DNA of 64,000 nucleotides. Source: Dictyostelium discoideum. Lineage: Eukaryota. The stretch is taken from positions 3,776,001-3,840,000 of the forward strand of contig CM000150.2 in NCBI GenBank assembly GCA_000004695.1, in the 5' to 3' direction. The stretch's first letter is position 1; every line of letters starts with the position of its first letter. The position numbers were made by a program, and so were the translations under genes. This document shows positions 19,204 to 28,667 of the stretch, one piece after another. The notes under the pieces are model-generated. The model was not told the DNA's origin. It searched no databases and worked only from the letters and a program-made list of their open reading frames with translations.

Positions 19204-20160
19204 ATGGTAGATACATCAAATCTTTTACCACAAACACCAAGACTTTTAAAAGTCCCATTAATTATTTTAAATATTATCCTTTGGGTATGTATTTTAATTT
19301 TTTTTTTTTTTTTTTTTTAAAACAAAAACTAAAAATAAAAAAAAAAAAAAAGATAATTGCAATATTAAAAAATAAATAAATAAATAAAAAAAATAAAATA
19401 AAAAAATATATTTTAATTAATAATATCTTAAAAAAAAAAAAAAAAAAATCTTTAGATTCTTGGTTTAGTTTTAGTTATTGTTGGTGGTATTTGTGTTAGC
19501 TTTTTATCAAATTTCAAAGATTTCACAAAAGCCAGTGATGCTAAATCAGCTCTTTCAAATCTTACAACCAGTATTCCAGCTGGTGTTTTAGTTATTGGTA
19601 TCCTCTTTGTAATTTTCACTGTTGTTGGTTGTTTCGTTGCGTAAGTATACCAATAATAATAAATTATTATTATTATTATTATTATTTATTTTTATTAACA
19701 TTTTATAAAATAATATAGTTACAAAGAGAAATTAGTTGGTTTAGTAATCTATTGTGCAGTAATGTTAATTTTATTAGTTATTTTAATTGGTGTTGGTGGT
19801 AAAGCTATAACATTACACAATGATGATATCATTAATGAAGTTGGTGGTGCTTGGGAACATGTTGCCAATGGTACAAAGAATAGCACCCTCACTCGTCTCG
19901 AAAATTTCTTAAAATGTTGTAAATGGTCAAACGTCTCAATAGACTCTTCAGATTTATGTCCAAAAGATGGTGATAAAATTAAATATGAAGGTCACTATTG
20001 TGGTGAAGCTTTAAGTGACCAATTCAGTTCAAAAATCTATGCTGTTGGTGCTGCTGGTTTAGCCATTGGTATCATTGAACTCGTTGCCATCCTTTTCTCA
20101 TTATTCTTAATTATTCGTATTTGTCGTTCACCAAGAACTCGTTCATATGATCAATATTAA
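19204..20160 (+). CDS. tetraspanin paralog 2; exons 19204..19284, 19456..19640, 19719..20160
   Basis: MVDTSNLLPQTPRLLKVPLIILNIILW|gtatgt; tttag|ILGLVLVIVGGICVSF...VGCFVA with donor GC|gtaagt at 19641; aatatag|T joins in phase to YKEKLVGLVIYCAVMLILLVILIGVGGK... (ORF 19762..20160 with KCCKW and CPKD motifs, TM4 and the ...RICRSPRTRSYDQY* tail). Confidence 0.75.
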
Positions 20161-20930: not shown

Positions 20931-21645
20931 TTAAAGATTTTAATTTATGAATATAATAATAAATTTTATTATTATTAATTATTAATTATAAATTATTATT
21001 ATTATTATTATTATTATTATTTAGTTATTAGGATTAGTACTTGTTATTATTGGTGGAATTTGTGTTGGATTTTTTTCAAGATTTAAAGAGTTACAAGAAG
21101 TAGGAGGAGTTTCAGAATCAATAAAGAGTATATCGGTATCATTACCAGCTGGTGTATTAAGTATTGGTATATTCTTTATGGTATTAACAGTAGCAGGATG
21201 TATCGTAGCTTATAAAGAGAAAATGGTAGGATTGGTATTCTACACAATATTGATGTTGGTTTTATTAGTTGTTTTAATTGGTATTGGTGGTGAAGCATTA
21301 ACTTACCATAATGCTGATATCGGTATTGAAATCGAAGATAATTGGAAAAACATCTCATATTCAAATCAAAGTGTTGTAATTAAAAAATTGGAACAATTCT
21401 TTGAATGTTGTTGTTTTGATGAAAGTGATCTAAAATTAAATTGTACTGCATTATGTCCACAAGATGATCAAAAAAATATATTATATAATGGTACTTTTTG
21501 TTATGATGTAATATTTGGTGCTGTAAATTCGAAATTGTATTTAGTTGGTAGTGCTGGTGTTGCAATTGGTGTGATTGAATTGGTTTCATTAATGTTTGCT
21601 TTATTTTTAATTGTTAGATTATATAAATCAAATTCTTATAGATAA
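20607..21645 (+). CDS. tetraspanin paralog 3; exons 20607..20646, 20813..20844, 21025..21645
   Basis: ATG GTA GAA TAT CTT CCT TCA ACT CCA CGT TAT TTA AAA G|gtatga; ag|TT CCA TTA ATA ATA TTA AAT GTC ATT CTT TGG|gtaaag; ttatttag|TTA TTA GGA TTA GTA CTT GTT ATT ATT GGT GGA... continues into ORF 21178..21645 (ECCCF and CPQDD motifs, TM4). Confidence 0.7.
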
Positions 21646-21961: not shown

Positions 21962-24493
21962 ATGAATATAATTACAACATTAGGTAATAATAATAGTAAT
22001 AATAATAAAAATAATGATAAACCAATGTCATATGAAGAGATTGAAAAATGGACAATTGAAAAGATGGATAAAATGTTGGGAGTTGATTCAAAGGAGATGG
22101 CAAAATATGTACTTTCAATGGATACAAATTCAGAGATTGAAAATTATTTAGCAGATGTTTTAGGTAATACAAAAAAAGTTCAAACATTTATTGAACAATT
22201 AATTAAAAAAATTAATTCATTACCAAGAAGAGTTTCAACAATTAAAGTTTATAAACCACAATCAAATCAAATGAATAATATTAAAAATAAAAAAAATACA
22301 ACCACAACCACAACCACAACCACTACAACTACTACTAATAAACCAACAAAACAACAAATTAGATCATTTAAAGAGATTGAAATTGAAATGAAACCAGGTG
22401 AACCATGTGATTGTCAAGCAACAAGACATAAACTATTAACCAATTGTTTAAATTGTGGTAAAATTATGTGTGAACAAGATGCAGGGTTATCAAAGAAATG
22501 TAGTTTTTGTTCAACACCATTATTTACAAATCCAATTAATTTATCAACACAACAACAACAATTGGTTGAAAAAAATTTAACAAATGCAGTTGAATATAAA
22601 GATAGAATTTTAGGTTATCAAAATACTCATGCTAAACGTACAATGGTTTATGATGATCAAGAGGATTATTTCTCAAATTCTACAAACAAATGGTTAACTG
22701 AAGAGGAAAGAAAAAAAGTTTTACAACAAGAACAAGAATTTAAACAAAAACAAGAAGATTATAAAAAAACTACTAGAATTTCAATCGATTTTCAAGGTAG
22801 AAGAATTATTACTGCACCAATTGATAAAAAATTATTTGAATTTGAAAAATTATCATTTCAAGATAAAAATAAATCACAACAACAACAACAACAAGATGAA
22901 TATAAATCAATTCAAGATTTTAAAAGTAGAAATGCTGAAATTGATAATAATCTTGGTAAAGATGTTAAATATACAAATTCAAAACAAATTAATAATAATA
23001 ATAATAATGATGATGGTAATGATAATAAAAAGATATCGGATCAAAGTGGTAAAATTATATTAGGTAGTGGTGGTGATGATTTAATTACAAAACAATATTA
23101 TGGCGTTGAAGAAGATATTGTTGTTTTTAATTCAAAAGAAGTTTTATCAAATGTAAATCTAAAATATAGAGGTATTATGGAAGGTTTATGGTATGATCAT
23201 ACTGGTTCAATTAAAAAGAGATTACCAAATTTATCAATTTATAAAAATTATATTCAAAATTTAAAAGATAATTCTTGTAATTTCATTTCAATTTCACCAC
23301 AAAATTATAGTAATCAAGAATTTCAATTTATTGGTTTAAATAGTATTGAAAATTCAAATTCAAATAGTTTAATATTACCAAATCAAATTAAAGAATTTTT
23401 AAAACAATTAATTGATTTTACAAATAAAAAAGATTTAAATAATTCAAATAATTCTATTAAAATTAATATATCAATATTAATACCAAGAGAATTTGAATTT
23501 TCAAATGAAAATAATTTTAAATTGTTAAAGAGTATAATTGAAATGTATGTTATGGTTGGAATTAAATCATTTAGTTTAATATTACCAAGTGGTTGGAATG
23601 ATTCATTTACGTTACCAATTTGTGCACCAAATTCAACAAAGAGTGAAGTTAACAATTCAAAAACTTATTCACAAACCCAAACCGCTTTCTTGACTCAATT
23701 GTATAAACATTATAAAAACAATATCGAATTTATAATTTGTCCATCAATGTTTGAATTGAATTTATCTTCTGGTACACCACCACCATCACGTCAACAAATT
23801 GAATATTGGTTAGAGATTAATAAATCAACACCTCAATCTTATCCAATTCTATTCACAACTTTATCAGGTTCTTTACAAAATTCAACTTTATCAAAAATTA
23901 AAAATATTTTTGATAAAAGAGATTTAATTGTAATTGAAAAATATCCTTATAAAAATAAACAAGTTCAAGCTCAACAAAAATCAATCATTTTACCAATTCA
24001 ATGGGATCCATATCATTGTTCATTTGATGATTATAAATCATTTTTATGTGGTGTTTTAGCTTCACCGTTTGATTCAGAGTTTTATTTAGATGATTTAACA
24101 ACAATGATAACTTTATGTACAACTTTTATTCAATATTTGAAATCACCTTTCAATTATCAAAGTGAATTAAGTTTACGTGCTACACTTGTTAACTTTACTG
24201 ATGGTAATGAAGAGGTTGCTGATTGTTTAGCAAATTTAATTTTAGCACTTTCAAATGGTGTTTTCGATCAAATTAATTCAATAGTTTTAACAAATCAATT
24301 AGAAAGACAACAACAACAACAAACTGATAATATCATTAAAAAAGATTCAATTGATCCAAGAGATAGAATCTTTTTTGAAAATCTTATTAATTATTCAAAT
24401 TTAGTTTTAGATTGTTTCAATAATTTACCTCATGACCCATTATTTGATTATTTAAATTTAATTAAAAAAACTTTATTAAATTATTTAGATTAA
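21962..24493 (+). CDS. activating signal cointegrator-1 (ASC-1/TRIP4)-like protein: N-terminal ASC-1 region with C2HC5 zinc finger, then low-complexity linker and a C-terminal domain unrelated to ASCH
   Basis: A single 843-aa ORF. It carries the TRIP4-like N-terminus (EEIEKWTIEKMDKMLGVDSKEMAKYVLSM...FIEQLIKKI), a zf-C2HC5 motif (PCDCQATRHKLLTNCLNCGKIMCEQ...CSFCSTPL), and the conserved RTMVYDDQEDYFSNSTNKWLTEEERK and ISIDFQGRRII blocks. The ~300-aa C-terminal region is discussed in the findings. Confidence 0.7.
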   Translation: MNIITTLGNNNSNNNKNNDKPMSYEEIEKWTIEKMDKMLGVDSKEMAKYVLSMDTNSEIENYLADVLGNTKKVQTFIEQLIKKINSLPRRVSTIKVYKPQSNQMNNIKNKKNTTTTTTTTTTTTTNKPTKQQIRSFKEIEIEMKPGEPCDCQATRHKLLTNCLNCGKIMCEQDAGLSKKCSFCSTPLFTNPINLSTQQQQLVEKNLTNAVEYKDRILGYQNTHAKRTMVYDDQEDYFSNSTNKWLTEEERKKVLQQEQEFKQKQEDYKKTTRISIDFQGRRIITAPIDKKLFEFEKLSFQDKNKSQQQQQQDEYKSIQDFKSRNAEIDNNLGKDVKYTNSKQINNNNNNDDGNDNKKISDQSGKIILGSGGDDLITKQYYGVEEDIVVFNSKEVLSNVNLKYRGIMEGLWYDHTGSIKKRLPNLSIYKNYIQNLKDNSCNFISISPQNYSNQEFQFIGLNSIENSNSNSLILPNQIKEFLKQLIDFTNKKDLNNSNNSIKINISILIPREFEFSNENNFKLLKSIIEMYVMVGIKSFSLILPSGWNDSFTLPICAPNSTKSEVNNSKTYSQTQTAFLTQLYKHYKNNIEFIICPSMFELNLSSGTPPPSRQQIEYWLEINKSTPQSYPILFTTLSGSLQNSTLSKIKNIFDKRDLIVIEKYPYKNKQVQAQQKSIILPIQWDPYHCSFDDYKSFLCGVLASPFDSEFYLDDLTTMITLCTTFIQYLKSPFNYQSELSLRATLVNFTDGNEEVADCLANLILALSNGVFDQINSIVLTNQLERQQQQQTDNIIKKDSIDPRDRIFFENLINYSNLVLDCFNNLPHDPLFDYLNLIKKTLLNYLD

Positions 24494-25075: not shown

Positions 25076-26204
25076 ATGGAAAAAGAAAATTTGGAATTAG
25101 AAGAGCTTGAATTAAAAGAGAAATTAGATGAATCGATTAAAAGTAAAAATAGATTTTATTTTATTTTTTATTTTATTTATTTTATTTTATTTATTATTAA
25201 TAATATGTGTTTATTAATAATTTTACTTTTATTAAATTTTTAATAATTATTATTTTTTTTAAATTTTTTTTTTTTTTTTAGTTTGTAGAAGTAAAAGTGA
25301 AGAATTGGTTAATAATTTAAAATATTGTTTAGAAAGTAGAGATTTTGAAAAATTTAATGATTTTTTCGATCCAAAAGCAGTATTAAATCATTGTAATGAA
25401 GAGATAATTGGTAGAAATTTAATAAAGAATTCTATAAATGACCTTTATATTGATAAAGAATTAAAACTTTACAAAGTAAGAACATTGATTGATTCAAATC
25501 AAAGACATATTGCATGTGAATGGGTCACAAGAAGAAGAGATTTAAATAGTGATAACCAATATGACCAAGGTATGGCAAGTTGGTATTTAAAATTATCACC
25601 AAATGATTATACCGTTAAAACATGGTATATTTGGATTGACAGAGTTTTCGATGGTGATAAAGTCGCAAATTTACAAATACCAATACCAAAGGAATCAGGC
25701 TGGATACCATGTCCCATTCAGTATTATTCTCGTAAGGAGATGTCTGAATTCTTGCGTTTAAGAAGTCAATCGTTTGAAGAGGAGGATTTGGATTTGTGGG
25801 GATCATACATTCATGATGACATTGTTGTACGTCCACCTTGGAATGAACAGGTCAATAAGAATTGTTGTATCGAAGGTGCAAAAGAGTTCTTTAACAATTA
25901 TGATTCTCCATCCATATCGAAAATGGAGTTACTCTATGATGAAACTATTCCAAATTGGTGTGTTTACATTCAAATCTTTTCAAGTACAAATAAAAAAACT
26001 GGTAAAAAAGGTGAAGATATTGATTTTGTTTTCAATGAAATTATTGATGGTAAAGTTCGTTATTGGAGATCTTATTTCAATGCAAATTTTAATAAAATTT
26101 TTACTGAAAATAATTTTAACTTTTTCATTGAAACTTTATCAAAATGTTCAAAAAATCAAAAAAATTTAGAAAATCAAAAAAAATTAAATTCATCAAATAA
26201 TAAC

Positions 26205-26240
<36 letters not shown>

Positions 26241-26258
26241 GGTAGTGGTAAAGATTAA
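25076..26258 (+). CDS. hypothetical protein, possibly tandem NTF2/SnoaL-like domains; exons 25076..25142, 25282..26258
   Basis: ATG GAA AAA GAA AAT TTG GAA...ATT AAA A|gtaaaaatag gives a phase-1 donor. The acceptor ttttttttag|TT TGT AGA AGT AAA AGT GAA GAA TTG GTT joins in frame 0 to ORF 25305..26258, whose listed start is TTG, so the true N-terminus is the upstream ATG exon. No confident family assignment. Confidence 0.5.
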
Positions 26259-26689
26259 AAAAAAAAAAAAGAAAAAGAAAAAAAGAAAAAACCTAATTGA
26301 TAATATATATATTAATTTAACTTTATATATACAAGTTTAAATATTTTAATTAGTAAAAATAAAATTTAATGAGAAATAAAATAAATAAATAAATAAAAAA
26401 AAAAAAAAATTTATTGATAAAAAGGCACAAAAATTTAATTATTTTAATTTCCTAATAATCCATTTCAAATGGTTTTTTATATATTTTTTATAATAATAAT
26501 AAATTATTTTAATTGAATAAAAGAAATAATTTTTATTTTTATTTTTAATTTGGGTGTTTATTTTGATTTTTGGATAAAACAAATATTTGTTTTCTCCAAA
26601 AAAAAAAAAAAAAAAAATTTTTTAACCCTTTTTTTTTATTTTTTTTTTTTTTTTTTTTATTTTTAAATTTCCCTCACCCAAATCATTTT

Positions 26690-26723
<34 letters not shown>

Positions 26724-26779
26724 CTTATTTGTTTTTTATTTATTTAAATAAAATCAAATATATATATATTATTTTTAAA

Positions 26780-27589
<810 letters not shown>

Positions 27590-27771: not shown

Positions 27772-28667
<896 letters not shown>

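Follow-up and report, generated by a model that had tools for sequence, protein, structure and literature searches.

The ASCH domain of TRIP4 is thought to stimulate the ASCC3 helicase by touching the nucleic acid that leaves the enzyme. The arrangement of human TRIP4 on ASCC3 has been described, including the zinc finger as the ASCC3-docking element, the lasso and the position of the ASCH domain, and TRIP4 and ALKBH3 are alternative, competing partners of ASCC3 in humans (PMC10076317). The ASCH domain is not universal in the TRIP4 family, since several fungal homologs also lack it and have nothing recognisable in its place. Pseudo-glycosidases serve as binding modules in other settings, as seen for alpha/beta-Klotho (GH1-like), the BZR1-type beta-amylases BAM7/8 and the chitinase-like lectins (GH18). 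For the GH84 family, catalysis requires an adjacent carboxylate pair, and the GlcNAc contacts in human OGA (hOGA) are D174, N280, K98, G67, N313 and D285, with D174 and D175 having the catalytic roles (PMC10636738).

The window analyzed here is a 64,000-nucleotide stretch of Dictyostelium discoideum DNA, and one of its genes brings these two families together. A complete ORF of 843 codons plus stop (21962..24493, plus strand, as are all features below) encodes a homolog of TRIP4/ASC-1 that ends in a pseudo-GH84 module. Judging from sequence comparisons and modeling, we consider it probable that this is a dictyostelid TRIP4/ASC-1 (Rqt4) homolog in which a pseudo-GH84 module has replaced ASCH and has a non-catalytic role at ASCC3.

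The TRIP4 half and the distribution of the fusion

The single-exon ORF runs for 2,529 nt without interruption in a genome of ~20% GC where out-of-frame stop codons are frequent, and AT-rich non-coding DNA lies on both flanks. The proteins of D. discoideum, D. citrinum and D. firmibasis share the start MNIITTLG, and orthologs from many dictyostelids are colinear with the 843-aa protein from end to end. An exact-sequence look-up returned no protein identical to the window's product, and the nearest database protein in a word-indexed search came from a D. discoideum isolate (96% identity).

The N-terminal part of the protein carries the TRI4_N domain (PF23135; aa 28-85, 22043..22216; E = 1.3e-16, 60.8 bits, cut-off 27.8), which aligns with human ASC-1 residues 12-75, the zf-C2HC5 zinc finger (PF06221; aa 147-190, 22400..22531; E = 2.1e-13, 50.5 bits, cut-off 25.8) and the TRIP4 third domain (TRIP4_3rd, PF23134; aa 232-284, 22655..22813; E = 6.5e-15, 55.7 bits, cut-off 27.7), which contains DDQEDYF...W...IDFQGR and aligns with 8alz_A 252-341. 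The order of the three Pfam domains is identical to that in human TRIP4/ASC-1 (yeast Rqt4; ASC-1/RQT complex, PDB 8alz), and the zinc ligands are kept, with C149, C151, H156, C162, C165, C170, C180 and C183 being invariant in alignment A4. A phmmer match to human ASC-1 (8alz_A) at E = 1e-27 is limited to human residues 12-341. These results bear out the proposal, made in a sequence-only reading of this DNA, that the protein is a TRIP4/ASC-1 homolog.

Human TRIP4 continues with the PUA-like, nucleic-acid-binding ASCH domain, whereas the Dictyostelium protein has a GH84-fold module of ~445 aa, as well as long, low-complexity linkers that include a 13-residue poly-Thr run. Pfam gave no match to ASCH (PF04266) in the 843-aa protein, and an ASCH profile matched neither the orthologs nor any of the six translated frames of the 64-kb window, while the positive controls scored E ~1e-89. 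A downstream ASCH exon was rejected on the strength of the same six-frame search. The sequence-only reading was therefore right that ASCH is missing and that a degenerate GH84 module stands in its place.

The two halves are joined by a low-complexity, weakly conserved linker (aa 285-377, 22814..23092) at the place of the human TRIP4 lasso region. Just upstream of the barrel is an invariant QYYGV-E/D-D motif (aa 378-385, 23093..23116), in which Q378, Y379, Y380, G381, V382 and D385 do not vary among the orthologs. Distant fusion proteins have FSKRIQHQYF, FSKRIQYDYF or SRRIQHEYF at this position, and the counterparts in canonical TRIP4 are QLRIQDQEF (human, 8alz_A 424-431), FRLQDREL and FSKVQDAEL. 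Based on these motifs, QYYGV-E/D-D is likely what remains of the lasso-end sequence R-I/V/L-Q-D-x-E-F/L found ahead of ASCH in canonical TRIP4; the dictyostelid form is short and degenerate (QYYG), which leaves its equivalence with the human motif short of statistical proof. Alignments produced by phmmer against 8alz, including those of the fusion proteins P0016 and P0017, ended at residue 381 or earlier and did not take in the lasso region, so the junction argument is one of motif comparison. At its junction to the C-terminal globular domain, the protein would have a short motif that resembles the end of the human lasso peptide.

The fusion was found in D. discoideum, D. citrinum, D. firmibasis, D. 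purpureum, Tieghemostelium, Acytostelium, Synstelium, Cavenderia, Nematostelium (Variosea) and further eukaryotic contigs. Its architecture is colinear in at least 10 species and also occurs as one ORF in a eukaryote of ~52% GC. Among ten amoebozoan species it was the sole TRIP4-like form recovered, in word-indexed searches that returned few distant relatives. In one relative, P0025, a single ORF without interruption encodes the TRIP4 zinc finger and third domain, a GH84-like module and an AlkB-like dioxygenase. The gene model of the C. fasciculata ortholog (2031 aa) is a clear over-merge at the 3' end. A literature search for TRIP4 with GH84, or for GH84 or TRIP4 in Dictyostelium, found nothing relevant, in keeping with the earlier statement that the combination has not been described. 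The databases weaken that statement, as the architecture is already on record there: UniRef/UniProt gives the automatic name 'GH84 domain-containing protein' to the orthologs of D. purpureum, D. firmibasis, T. lacteum and C. fasciculata.

The C-terminal GH84 fold

Residues ~400-843 form a genuine GH84 fold, in which a (beta/alpha)8 barrel (aa 400-733, 23159..24160) is followed by a C-terminal helical bundle (aa 734-843, 24161..24490) that is the counterpart of the GH84 stalk domain. The span proposed earlier for the module, 23150-24100 (aa 397-713), lies inside the barrel; its 3' boundary was slightly short given where the barrel ends and the stalk begins.

Several lines of evidence support the assignment. 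The C-terminal part alone matches PF07555 (GH84 NAGidase) at E = 6.9e-5 with 22.8 bits, ~2 bits short of Pfam's curated threshold of 25. Of six dictyostelid modules in an alignment (the window's and those of five orthologs, alignment A2), four match the same profile (best E = 1.7e-16), and the relatives P0006 and P0007 reach 43 and 50 bits. The single C-terminal sequence had no match in the PDB by phmmer and a profile was needed, with the ortholog profile retrieving GH84 structures at E = 4.7e-13. An hhalign comparison with nine canonical GH84 proteins gave a probability of 99.24% and E = 6.4e-20 over 292 columns. An AF2 model from six orthologs (pLDDT 58.6), for which all Foldseek matches were GH84 proteins at TM ~0.4, was replaced by a model from 30 sequences with a pLDDT of 82. 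The structural matches include the substrate-trap mutants CpOGA D298N and TtOGA D120N, and among the distant barrel matches were beta-Klotho and a BZR1-type beta-amylase. The GH84-like fold had been suggested from five motif pairs matched by eye (GIMEGLW/GVVEGFY, NFISISPQ/NTYLYAPK, KSFSLILPS/RSFALLFDD, CPSMFE/CPTEYC and PILFTT/EVLWTG), and when 25 sequences were aligned with MAFFT L-INS-i, the members of all five pairs fell opposite each other, far beyond chance.

Identity in the barrel is 35-63% across non-sibling dictyostelids, near the conservation of the TRIP4 domains, while the linker (aa 285-377) reaches just 9-29%. Conservation along the protein is highest in the extended beta4-alpha4 loop, GWNDSFTLPICAPNSTKSEVNNSKTYSQTQT (aa 544-574, 23591..23683), with 97% identity in D. 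purpureum, 90% in P0002 and 84% in T. lacteum. According to the ortholog profile search of the PDB, the loop is partly homologous to an hOGA segment, and in the AF2 model it is partly of low confidence (pLDDT <50 at aa 554-559).

Active site and sugar contacts

Strand beta4 is SFSLI (aa 536-540). In the MAFFT alignment with intermediates, the position of human OGA Asp174-Asp175 falls right after this strand on P542-S543 (23585..23590); hhalign places P542, a 4-residue gap and D547 there, and HMMER places N546-D547. An adjacent Asp-Asp is absent in all three registers. The HMMER register (WND/FDD), which would keep one Asp, was rejected: it requires a 4-5-residue gap right after beta4, the residues at its N/D positions differ between orthologs (ND, DA, NS, NE), and intermediate members of the family, which align gap-free to DD, speak against it. 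Those relatives have DD (P0024), DK (P0008), DR (P0019), AD (P0025), EP (P0018) or PF (P0012) at the catalytic-pair position. Among dictyostelids P542 is invariant and S543 is replaced by A in Synstelium and by Y in Cavenderia. The intermediate sequences thereby favor the earlier claim that PS replaces the catalytic pair, and no choice of register brings the pair back.

The loss extends to the sugar contacts. In the MAFFT alignment, K98 of hOGA is replaced by Q, E, D or Y (Q in the window protein), N280 by K, and N313 by S or T (S in the window protein), and D285 is lost. Y219 and W278, which we take to be further GlcNAc-binding residues of hOGA, are replaced by F and I. Of the six GlcNAc contacts listed above, G67 alone is kept, and the acid/base D175 is gone as well as D174. 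The segment VIEKYPY (aa 657-663, 23930..23950) has I-E-K in place of the W278-D279-N280 sugar-binding triad, and I658, E659, K660, P662 and Y663 are invariant among orthologs. In the wider family, P0024 keeps DD and N313, and the fragment P0014 keeps W-D-N, D-Y and N313.

Because the Asp-Asp pair and almost every residue that holds GlcNAc are lost, we regard the module as a pseudo-enzyme, and beta-N-acetylglucosaminidase activity is predicted to be absent. The same replacements make GlcNAc binding in the canonical manner unlikely, and the description of the module as sugar-binding in the sequence-only reading is not supported. The GH fold has been kept, the catalytic residues have been lost and the sequence is conserved under purifying selection, which is the combination expected of a pseudo-glycosidase. 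Since the substituted residues of the presumed pocket and the enlarged beta4-alpha4 loop are strongly conserved, selection appears to have acted for a new, non-catalytic function.

Possible roles of the module

The most likely function of the module is that of a non-catalytic binding or scaffold unit that is brought to the ASCC3 helicase instead of ASCH. The exchange of ASCH for the GH84 barrel and stalk probably occurred in an ancestor of at least Dictyostelia and Variosea. Dictyostelium TRIP4 would be an adaptor that docks on the helicase ASCC3/Slh1 in the RQT (ASC-1/ribosome-quality-control-trigger) complex, with the zinc finger anchoring it on the C-terminal cassette of ASCC3 and the retained lasso-end motif leading to the pseudo-GH84 module, set at the usual ASCH site near the nucleic-acid exit. 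At this site the module may offer a binding or scaffold surface, with a protein or peptide segment or else nucleic acid as its partner, rather than act as a glycosidase. Alternatively, it may mediate dimerization through the stalk, as in OGA.

Could the pocket still handle a glycan? One possibility is that the module is a non-catalytic glycan reader, for O-GlcNAc or, more plausibly, for Spy-dependent O-fucose or the Skp1 glycan, that recruits ASC-1/RQT to glycosylated targets. The GH84 fold and pocket-forming positions that appear conserved rather than decayed would fit such a role. Catalytically dead glycosidases do serve as lectins, and the CpOGA D298N and TtOGA D120N traps are among the structural matches. 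Moreover, O-Fuc is abundant on Ser/Thr-rich tracts of nucleocytoplasmic proteins in Dictyostelium, with its eraser not identified and a reader not mentioned (PMC11853108). We nevertheless consider a glycan reader unlikely, as five of the six polar GlcNAc contacts and the acid/base are replaced or lost and some of the substitutes are hydrophobic or basic residues (P, I, K, F), whereas the engineered traps change one Asp. A more speculative idea, to which we assign a slim chance, is that the TRIP4-GH84 fusion is an ancient coupling of nucleocytoplasmic glycosylation to ASCC3, with an active O-GlcNAcase in the ancestor and a dictyostelid pocket that now reads or removes another glycan, such as Spy-dependent O-fucose. 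This idea draws on the family members that still have DD or the W-D-N/D-Y/N set; if true, ribosome rescue or transcriptional co-activation would be aimed at glycosylated substrates, and the missing O-Fuc reader or eraser would be supplied. The canonical residues of P0024 and P0014, together with several invariant acidic residues near the former active site, could also be taken to mean that the module is active on another glycoside or a non-glycoside substrate through a re-invented site (E407, E598, E659). That seems very improbable to us: the polarizing residue is now an invariant proline, and we know of no GH84 member with a relocated catalytic apparatus. The adjacent carboxylate pair that GH84 catalysis requires (PMC10636738) is also absent in every register.

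A different concern is whether this gene is the TRIP4 gene at all. The protein might be a paralog with a side function unrelated to RQT/ASC-1, with a canonical TRIP4-ASCH protein encoded elsewhere in the genome, and the word index used in the ortholog and paralog searches was of limited sensitivity. An N-terminal profile search recovered no ASCH-bearing dictyostelid protein, though that word-indexed search also missed the dictyostelid orthologs and is therefore uninformative here. The zinc ligands and each of the three domains specific to TRIP4 are kept and conserved, and the fusion is the only TRIP4-like form recovered in the ten amoebozoan species, which makes a paralog decidedly unlikely. 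It is hardly credible that the fusion is a gene-model artefact, with two genes or exons read through, or a decaying, functionless remnant. The low-complexity, weakly conserved linker and the over-merged C. fasciculata model might raise that suspicion, but the frame stays open for 2,529 nt despite the frequent out-of-frame stops of a ~20% GC genome, the architecture recurs in at least 10 species and in one ORF at ~52% GC, and the barrel is conserved nearly as well as the TRIP4 domains.

If a non-catalytic pseudo-GH84 module does take the place of ASCH at ASCC3, the lineage-wide swap for an unrelated, dead glycosidase fold would mean that the nucleic-acid contact is dispensable or is achieved very differently, and the tuning of the RQT/ASC-1 complex could be studied in Dictyostelia as a natural experiment. 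The GH84 family would gain a conserved intracellular pseudo-enzyme, and to our knowledge no other naturally inactive member of the family is known. Dictyostelium is genetically tractable, and thus the role of the domain is directly testable. The organism is also suited to the study of RQT/ASC-1 because poly(A) tracks, on which ribosomes are made to stall, are found in ~21% of its genes (PMC6908487).

Compared with GH84 O-GlcNAcases (human OGA 5m7r, 5un9 and 5uhk; TtOGA 5diy; CpOGA/NagJ; BtGH84; OgOGA), the module shares RG-I/V-x-EG at beta1, N-x-Y/F at beta2, CP-T/S at beta5, xNP/xSP at beta8 and NY/Y-x-P-E-x-S in the first stalk helix. It differs from them in the loss of the Asp-Asp pair and the replacement or loss of K98, Y219, W278, N280, D285 and N313, in its larger, highly conserved beta4-alpha4 loop and in having no pseudo-HAT domain. 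In addition, it is fused to the N-terminus of TRIP4, whereas GH84 O-GlcNAcases stand alone or carry bacterial modules of the CBM/FIVAR type. The one-ORF TRIP4-GH84-AlkB relative, P0025, links the module to the ASCC3/ALKBH3 axis and recalls the ASCC3-ALKBH3 alkylation-repair module in uniting the TRIP4 zinc finger and the GH84-like module with an AlkB-like dioxygenase. The Dictyostelium protein itself has no AlkB domain, and the human partners are separate, mutually exclusive proteins. Klotho, BAM7/8 and the chitinase-like lectins offer a further parallel, in that a GH barrel was kept under selection after catalytic loss in signaling or regulatory proteins. They belong to other GH families with other partner domains, and none is joined to an adaptor of a helicase complex. 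The Dictyostelium protein is predicted to be nucleocytoplasmic, unlike Klotho and the chitinase-like proteins, which are extracellular.

TRIP4 domains, missing ASCH and GH84-like barrel

The N-terminal half of the 843-aa protein has three Pfam domains well over their curated cut-offs, TRI4_N (aa 28-85), zf-C2HC5 (aa 147-190) and TRIP4_3rd (aa 232-284), and none of the eight zinc-ligand positions varies even when distant relatives are aligned. Pfam gave no ASCH match in the protein, and the solved human ASC-1 chain (8alz_A) was matched at E=1.2e-27, reaching only its residue 341. An ASCH profile made from 13 canonical TRIP4 proteins was silent in the orthologs and in all six reading frames of the 64-kb window, while as a positive control it recovered two held-out canonical TRIP4 proteins (E about 1e-89). 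Thus, ASCH is truly absent from the protein, and the six-frame search rules out an ASCH domain hidden in a downstream exon. Five fungal TRIP4 homologs (P0060, P0063, P0064, P0065 and P0071) have zf-C2HC5 and in some cases the third domain, but neither ASCH nor another recognised C-terminal domain, so the C-terminal module of the TRIP4 family is labile in evolution, and in at least two lineages.

On its own, the C-terminal half matched PF07555 (GH84) at E=6.9e-5, its 22.8 bits falling short of the cut-off of 25. When the window module was aligned with those of five dictyostelid orthologs, four of these six matched the family, with E=1.7e-16 for the best. A profile built from all six found Thermobaculum OGA (5diy; E=4.7e-13) and human OGA (E=1.3e-6), and the 12 sequences that it matched at E up to 10 were without exception GH84 chains. 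The hhalign comparison with nine canonical GH84 proteins gave a probability of 99.24% (E=6.4e-20, 292 columns). An AlphaFold2 model built from a 30-sequence alignment (mean pLDDT 82, pTM 0.84) has eight strand/helix repeats forming a complete TIM barrel at aa 400-733, followed by a helical bundle at aa 734-843, and the top 50 Foldseek matches in the PDB were all GH84 (best E=5e-14, TM about 0.6). The sequence-only reading had placed a GH84-like region where ASCH would be, and these searches bear it out; each of its five by-eye motif pairs is also aligned together in a 25-sequence L-INS-i alignment.

Catalytic pair and sugar pocket

In human OGA (hOGA), polarisation of the acetamido group falls to D174 and general acid/base catalysis to D175, and GlcNAc is contacted by D174, N280, K98, G67, N313 and D285 (PMC10636738). 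Dictyostelids keep G67, have Q/E/D/Y for K98, S/A/Y for D175, S/T for N313 and no equivalent of D285, and show invariant replacements by P at D174, F at Y219 and I-E-K at W278-D279-N280. MAFFT places the second catalytic position at S543, whereas hhalign and HMMER place it after a gap at D547, HMMER additionally moving the first to N546. We prefer the ungapped register since L-P-S follows strand beta4 of the model (SFSLI, aa 536-540) as F-D-D does in OGA, and since intermediate homologs align at this site without gaps (P0024 DD, P0008 DK, P0019 DR, P0025 AD, P0018 EP and P0012 PF). Positions 546-547 vary across orthologs (ND, DA, NS, NE). The ungapped register agrees with the earlier claim that PS replaces the Asp-Asp pair, and no register (MAFFT, hhalign or HMMER) yields an adjacent carboxylate pair, so, to the extent that sequence can tell, the module cannot hydrolyse substrates by the GH84 mechanism.

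A re-invented active site in the module is unlikely, as is canonical GlcNAc binding. The module had also been called sugar-binding, a proposal that fares poorly because, among the GlcNAc contacts of hOGA, only G67 is kept. It is possible that the module reads glycans, either O-GlcNAc or O-Fuc, the latter being abundant in Dictyostelium with no removing fucosidase identified (PMC11853108), but with the polar sugar contacts gone this role is disfavoured. Homopolymeric Ser/Thr tracts are targets of Spy-dependent O-fucose in Dictyostelium (PMC11853108), and since the linker that leads from TRI4_N to the zinc finger contains a 13-residue poly-threonine run (window 22298-22336, aa 113-125), one may speculate that the window protein is itself O-fucosylated.

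Active-site degeneration is graded across the wider family in the alignment comparison. Three proteins of this GH84-like subfamily, all with its EYW and SL-K/R-xAL motifs, have a more canonical active site: P0024 retains DD and N313; P0014 W-D-N, D-Y and N313; and P0008 D-K, W-D-N and N313. These are fragments or have no visible TRIP4 part.

Conservation, gene structure and reach of the fusion

Among non-sibling dictyostelids, identity is 35-63% in the barrel and 36-79% in the TRIP4 domains, against only 9-29% in the linker that joins the halves. Conservation within the protein peaks in the beta4-alpha4 loop (aa 544-574, GWNDSFTLPICAPNSTKSEVNNSKTYSQTQT), which is partly homologous to the human OGA loop and is 97% identical in D. 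purpureum, 90% in P0002 and 84% in T. lacteum. These values rule out a decaying remnant.

An exhaustive HMMER scan over 1.84 billion representatives (E up to 1e-3) returned only 29 proteins, and between the five close relatives and the rest the score falls from 400 bits to 79. The species represented are D. purpureum, Tieghemostelium lacteum, Acytostelium subglobosum, Synstelium polycarpum, Cavenderia fasciculata and the much more distant Nematostelium gracile (Variosea). TRIP4 domains are joined to a GH84-like module in proteins from further eukaryotic contigs (P0012, P0016 and P0025), and together with Nematostelium these indicate that the fusion predates Dictyostelia. P0025, from a eukaryote of roughly 52% GC, is a single uninterrupted ORF of 1,258 codons (L001 7908-11684, forward strand, Logan SRR12105370) that combines the TRIP4 zinc finger, third domain, junction motif, GH84-like module (PF07555, 140 bits; DD to AD) and a C-terminal AlkB-like 2OG-Fe(II) dioxygenase (PF13532, E=5e-21). 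Since ASCC3 in humans partners with either TRIP4 or ALKBH3, this one-ORF fusion is a Rosetta-stone-type link and independently supports an ASCC3 context for the module.

A gene-model artefact is an unlikely source of the TRIP4-GH84 fusion. The ORF (21962-24493, forward strand) lies between AT-rich non-coding flanks in DNA of about 20% GC with coding tracts of poly-N, poly-Q and poly-T, and its start, MNIITTLG..., is that of annotated sibling-species proteins. Its nearest protein is D. discoideum ACTFIW_009630 (96% identity), followed by D. citrinum (87-88%) and D. firmibasis (85%) proteins; the exact sequence is absent from a collection of 15 billion proteins. A less likely reading is that the protein is a paralog, with the orthologous, canonical TRIP4-ASCH encoded elsewhere in the genome. 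In the public model of P0007 (C. fasciculata DFA_00171, 2031 aa), a TRIP4-GH84 protein ending at about aa 765 is continued by a ComC-supersandwich/EGF-like transmembrane protein; the annotation has almost certainly merged two genes here.

The neighbouring genes, all on the forward strand, include two tandem Tetraspanin-family ORFs upstream (19762-20160, E=2e-13; 21178-21645, E=8e-21), probably exons of two neighbouring paralogs. Three genes downstream are unrelated to the finding. The next one has two exons and a weak match to SnoaL-like proteins (25077-26258; ATG at 25077, an AT-rich intron-like gap, ORF from 25305), and the others are a HAD-family hydrolase (26570-27589) and a YjeF_N fragment (28293-28667).

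Predicted ASCC3 docking and comparison with canonical TRIP4

The human TRIP4 zinc finger is necessary and sufficient for stable binding to the ASCC3 helicase, for which ALKBH3 competes, and the lasso and ASCH, placed on the C-terminal helicase cassette, contact nucleic acid and thereby promote unwinding (PMC10076317). Given the intact zinc finger, the parsimonious expectation is that the window protein would use it to dock on the ASCC3 homolog of Dictyostelium. This would display the pseudo-GH84 module at or near the ASCH site, where it may offer a surface for binding or scaffolding without catalysis.

The literature search found nothing on TRIP4 together with GH84, or on either with Dictyostelium in a relevant sense, consistent with the earlier statement that the combination had not been described; however, UniRef auto-labels several orthologs 'GH84 domain-containing protein', so the domain call itself is already in databases. 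What appears undescribed is the probable replacement of ASCH at its boundary, the loss of the sugar pocket beyond the catalytic pair alone, the conservation of the replacement residues, the reach of the fusion beyond Dictyostelia, and the AlkB-like dioxygenase added in P0025.

In human TRIP4, the groove-inserted lasso peptide spans residues 411-424 and ASCH residues 425-578 (PMC10076317), and QLRIQDQEF (8alz_A 424-431) falls at their junction; the equivalent site reads FRLQDREL in Trichoplax TRIP4 and FSKVQDAEL in aphid TRIP4. Just upstream of the barrel, fusion proteins have FSKRIQHQYF, FSKRIQYDYF, QSRIQHDYY or SRRIQHEYF, and dictyostelids an invariant QYYGV-E/D-D. Whereas the lasso-end motif leads into ASCH in canonical TRIP4, a similar motif leads into the barrel in the fusion proteins, and this short motif suggests, without proving, that ASCH was replaced exactly at its boundary with the lasso end retained. 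The window protein combines two known kinds of protein, a TRIP4 adaptor and a pseudo-glycosidase.
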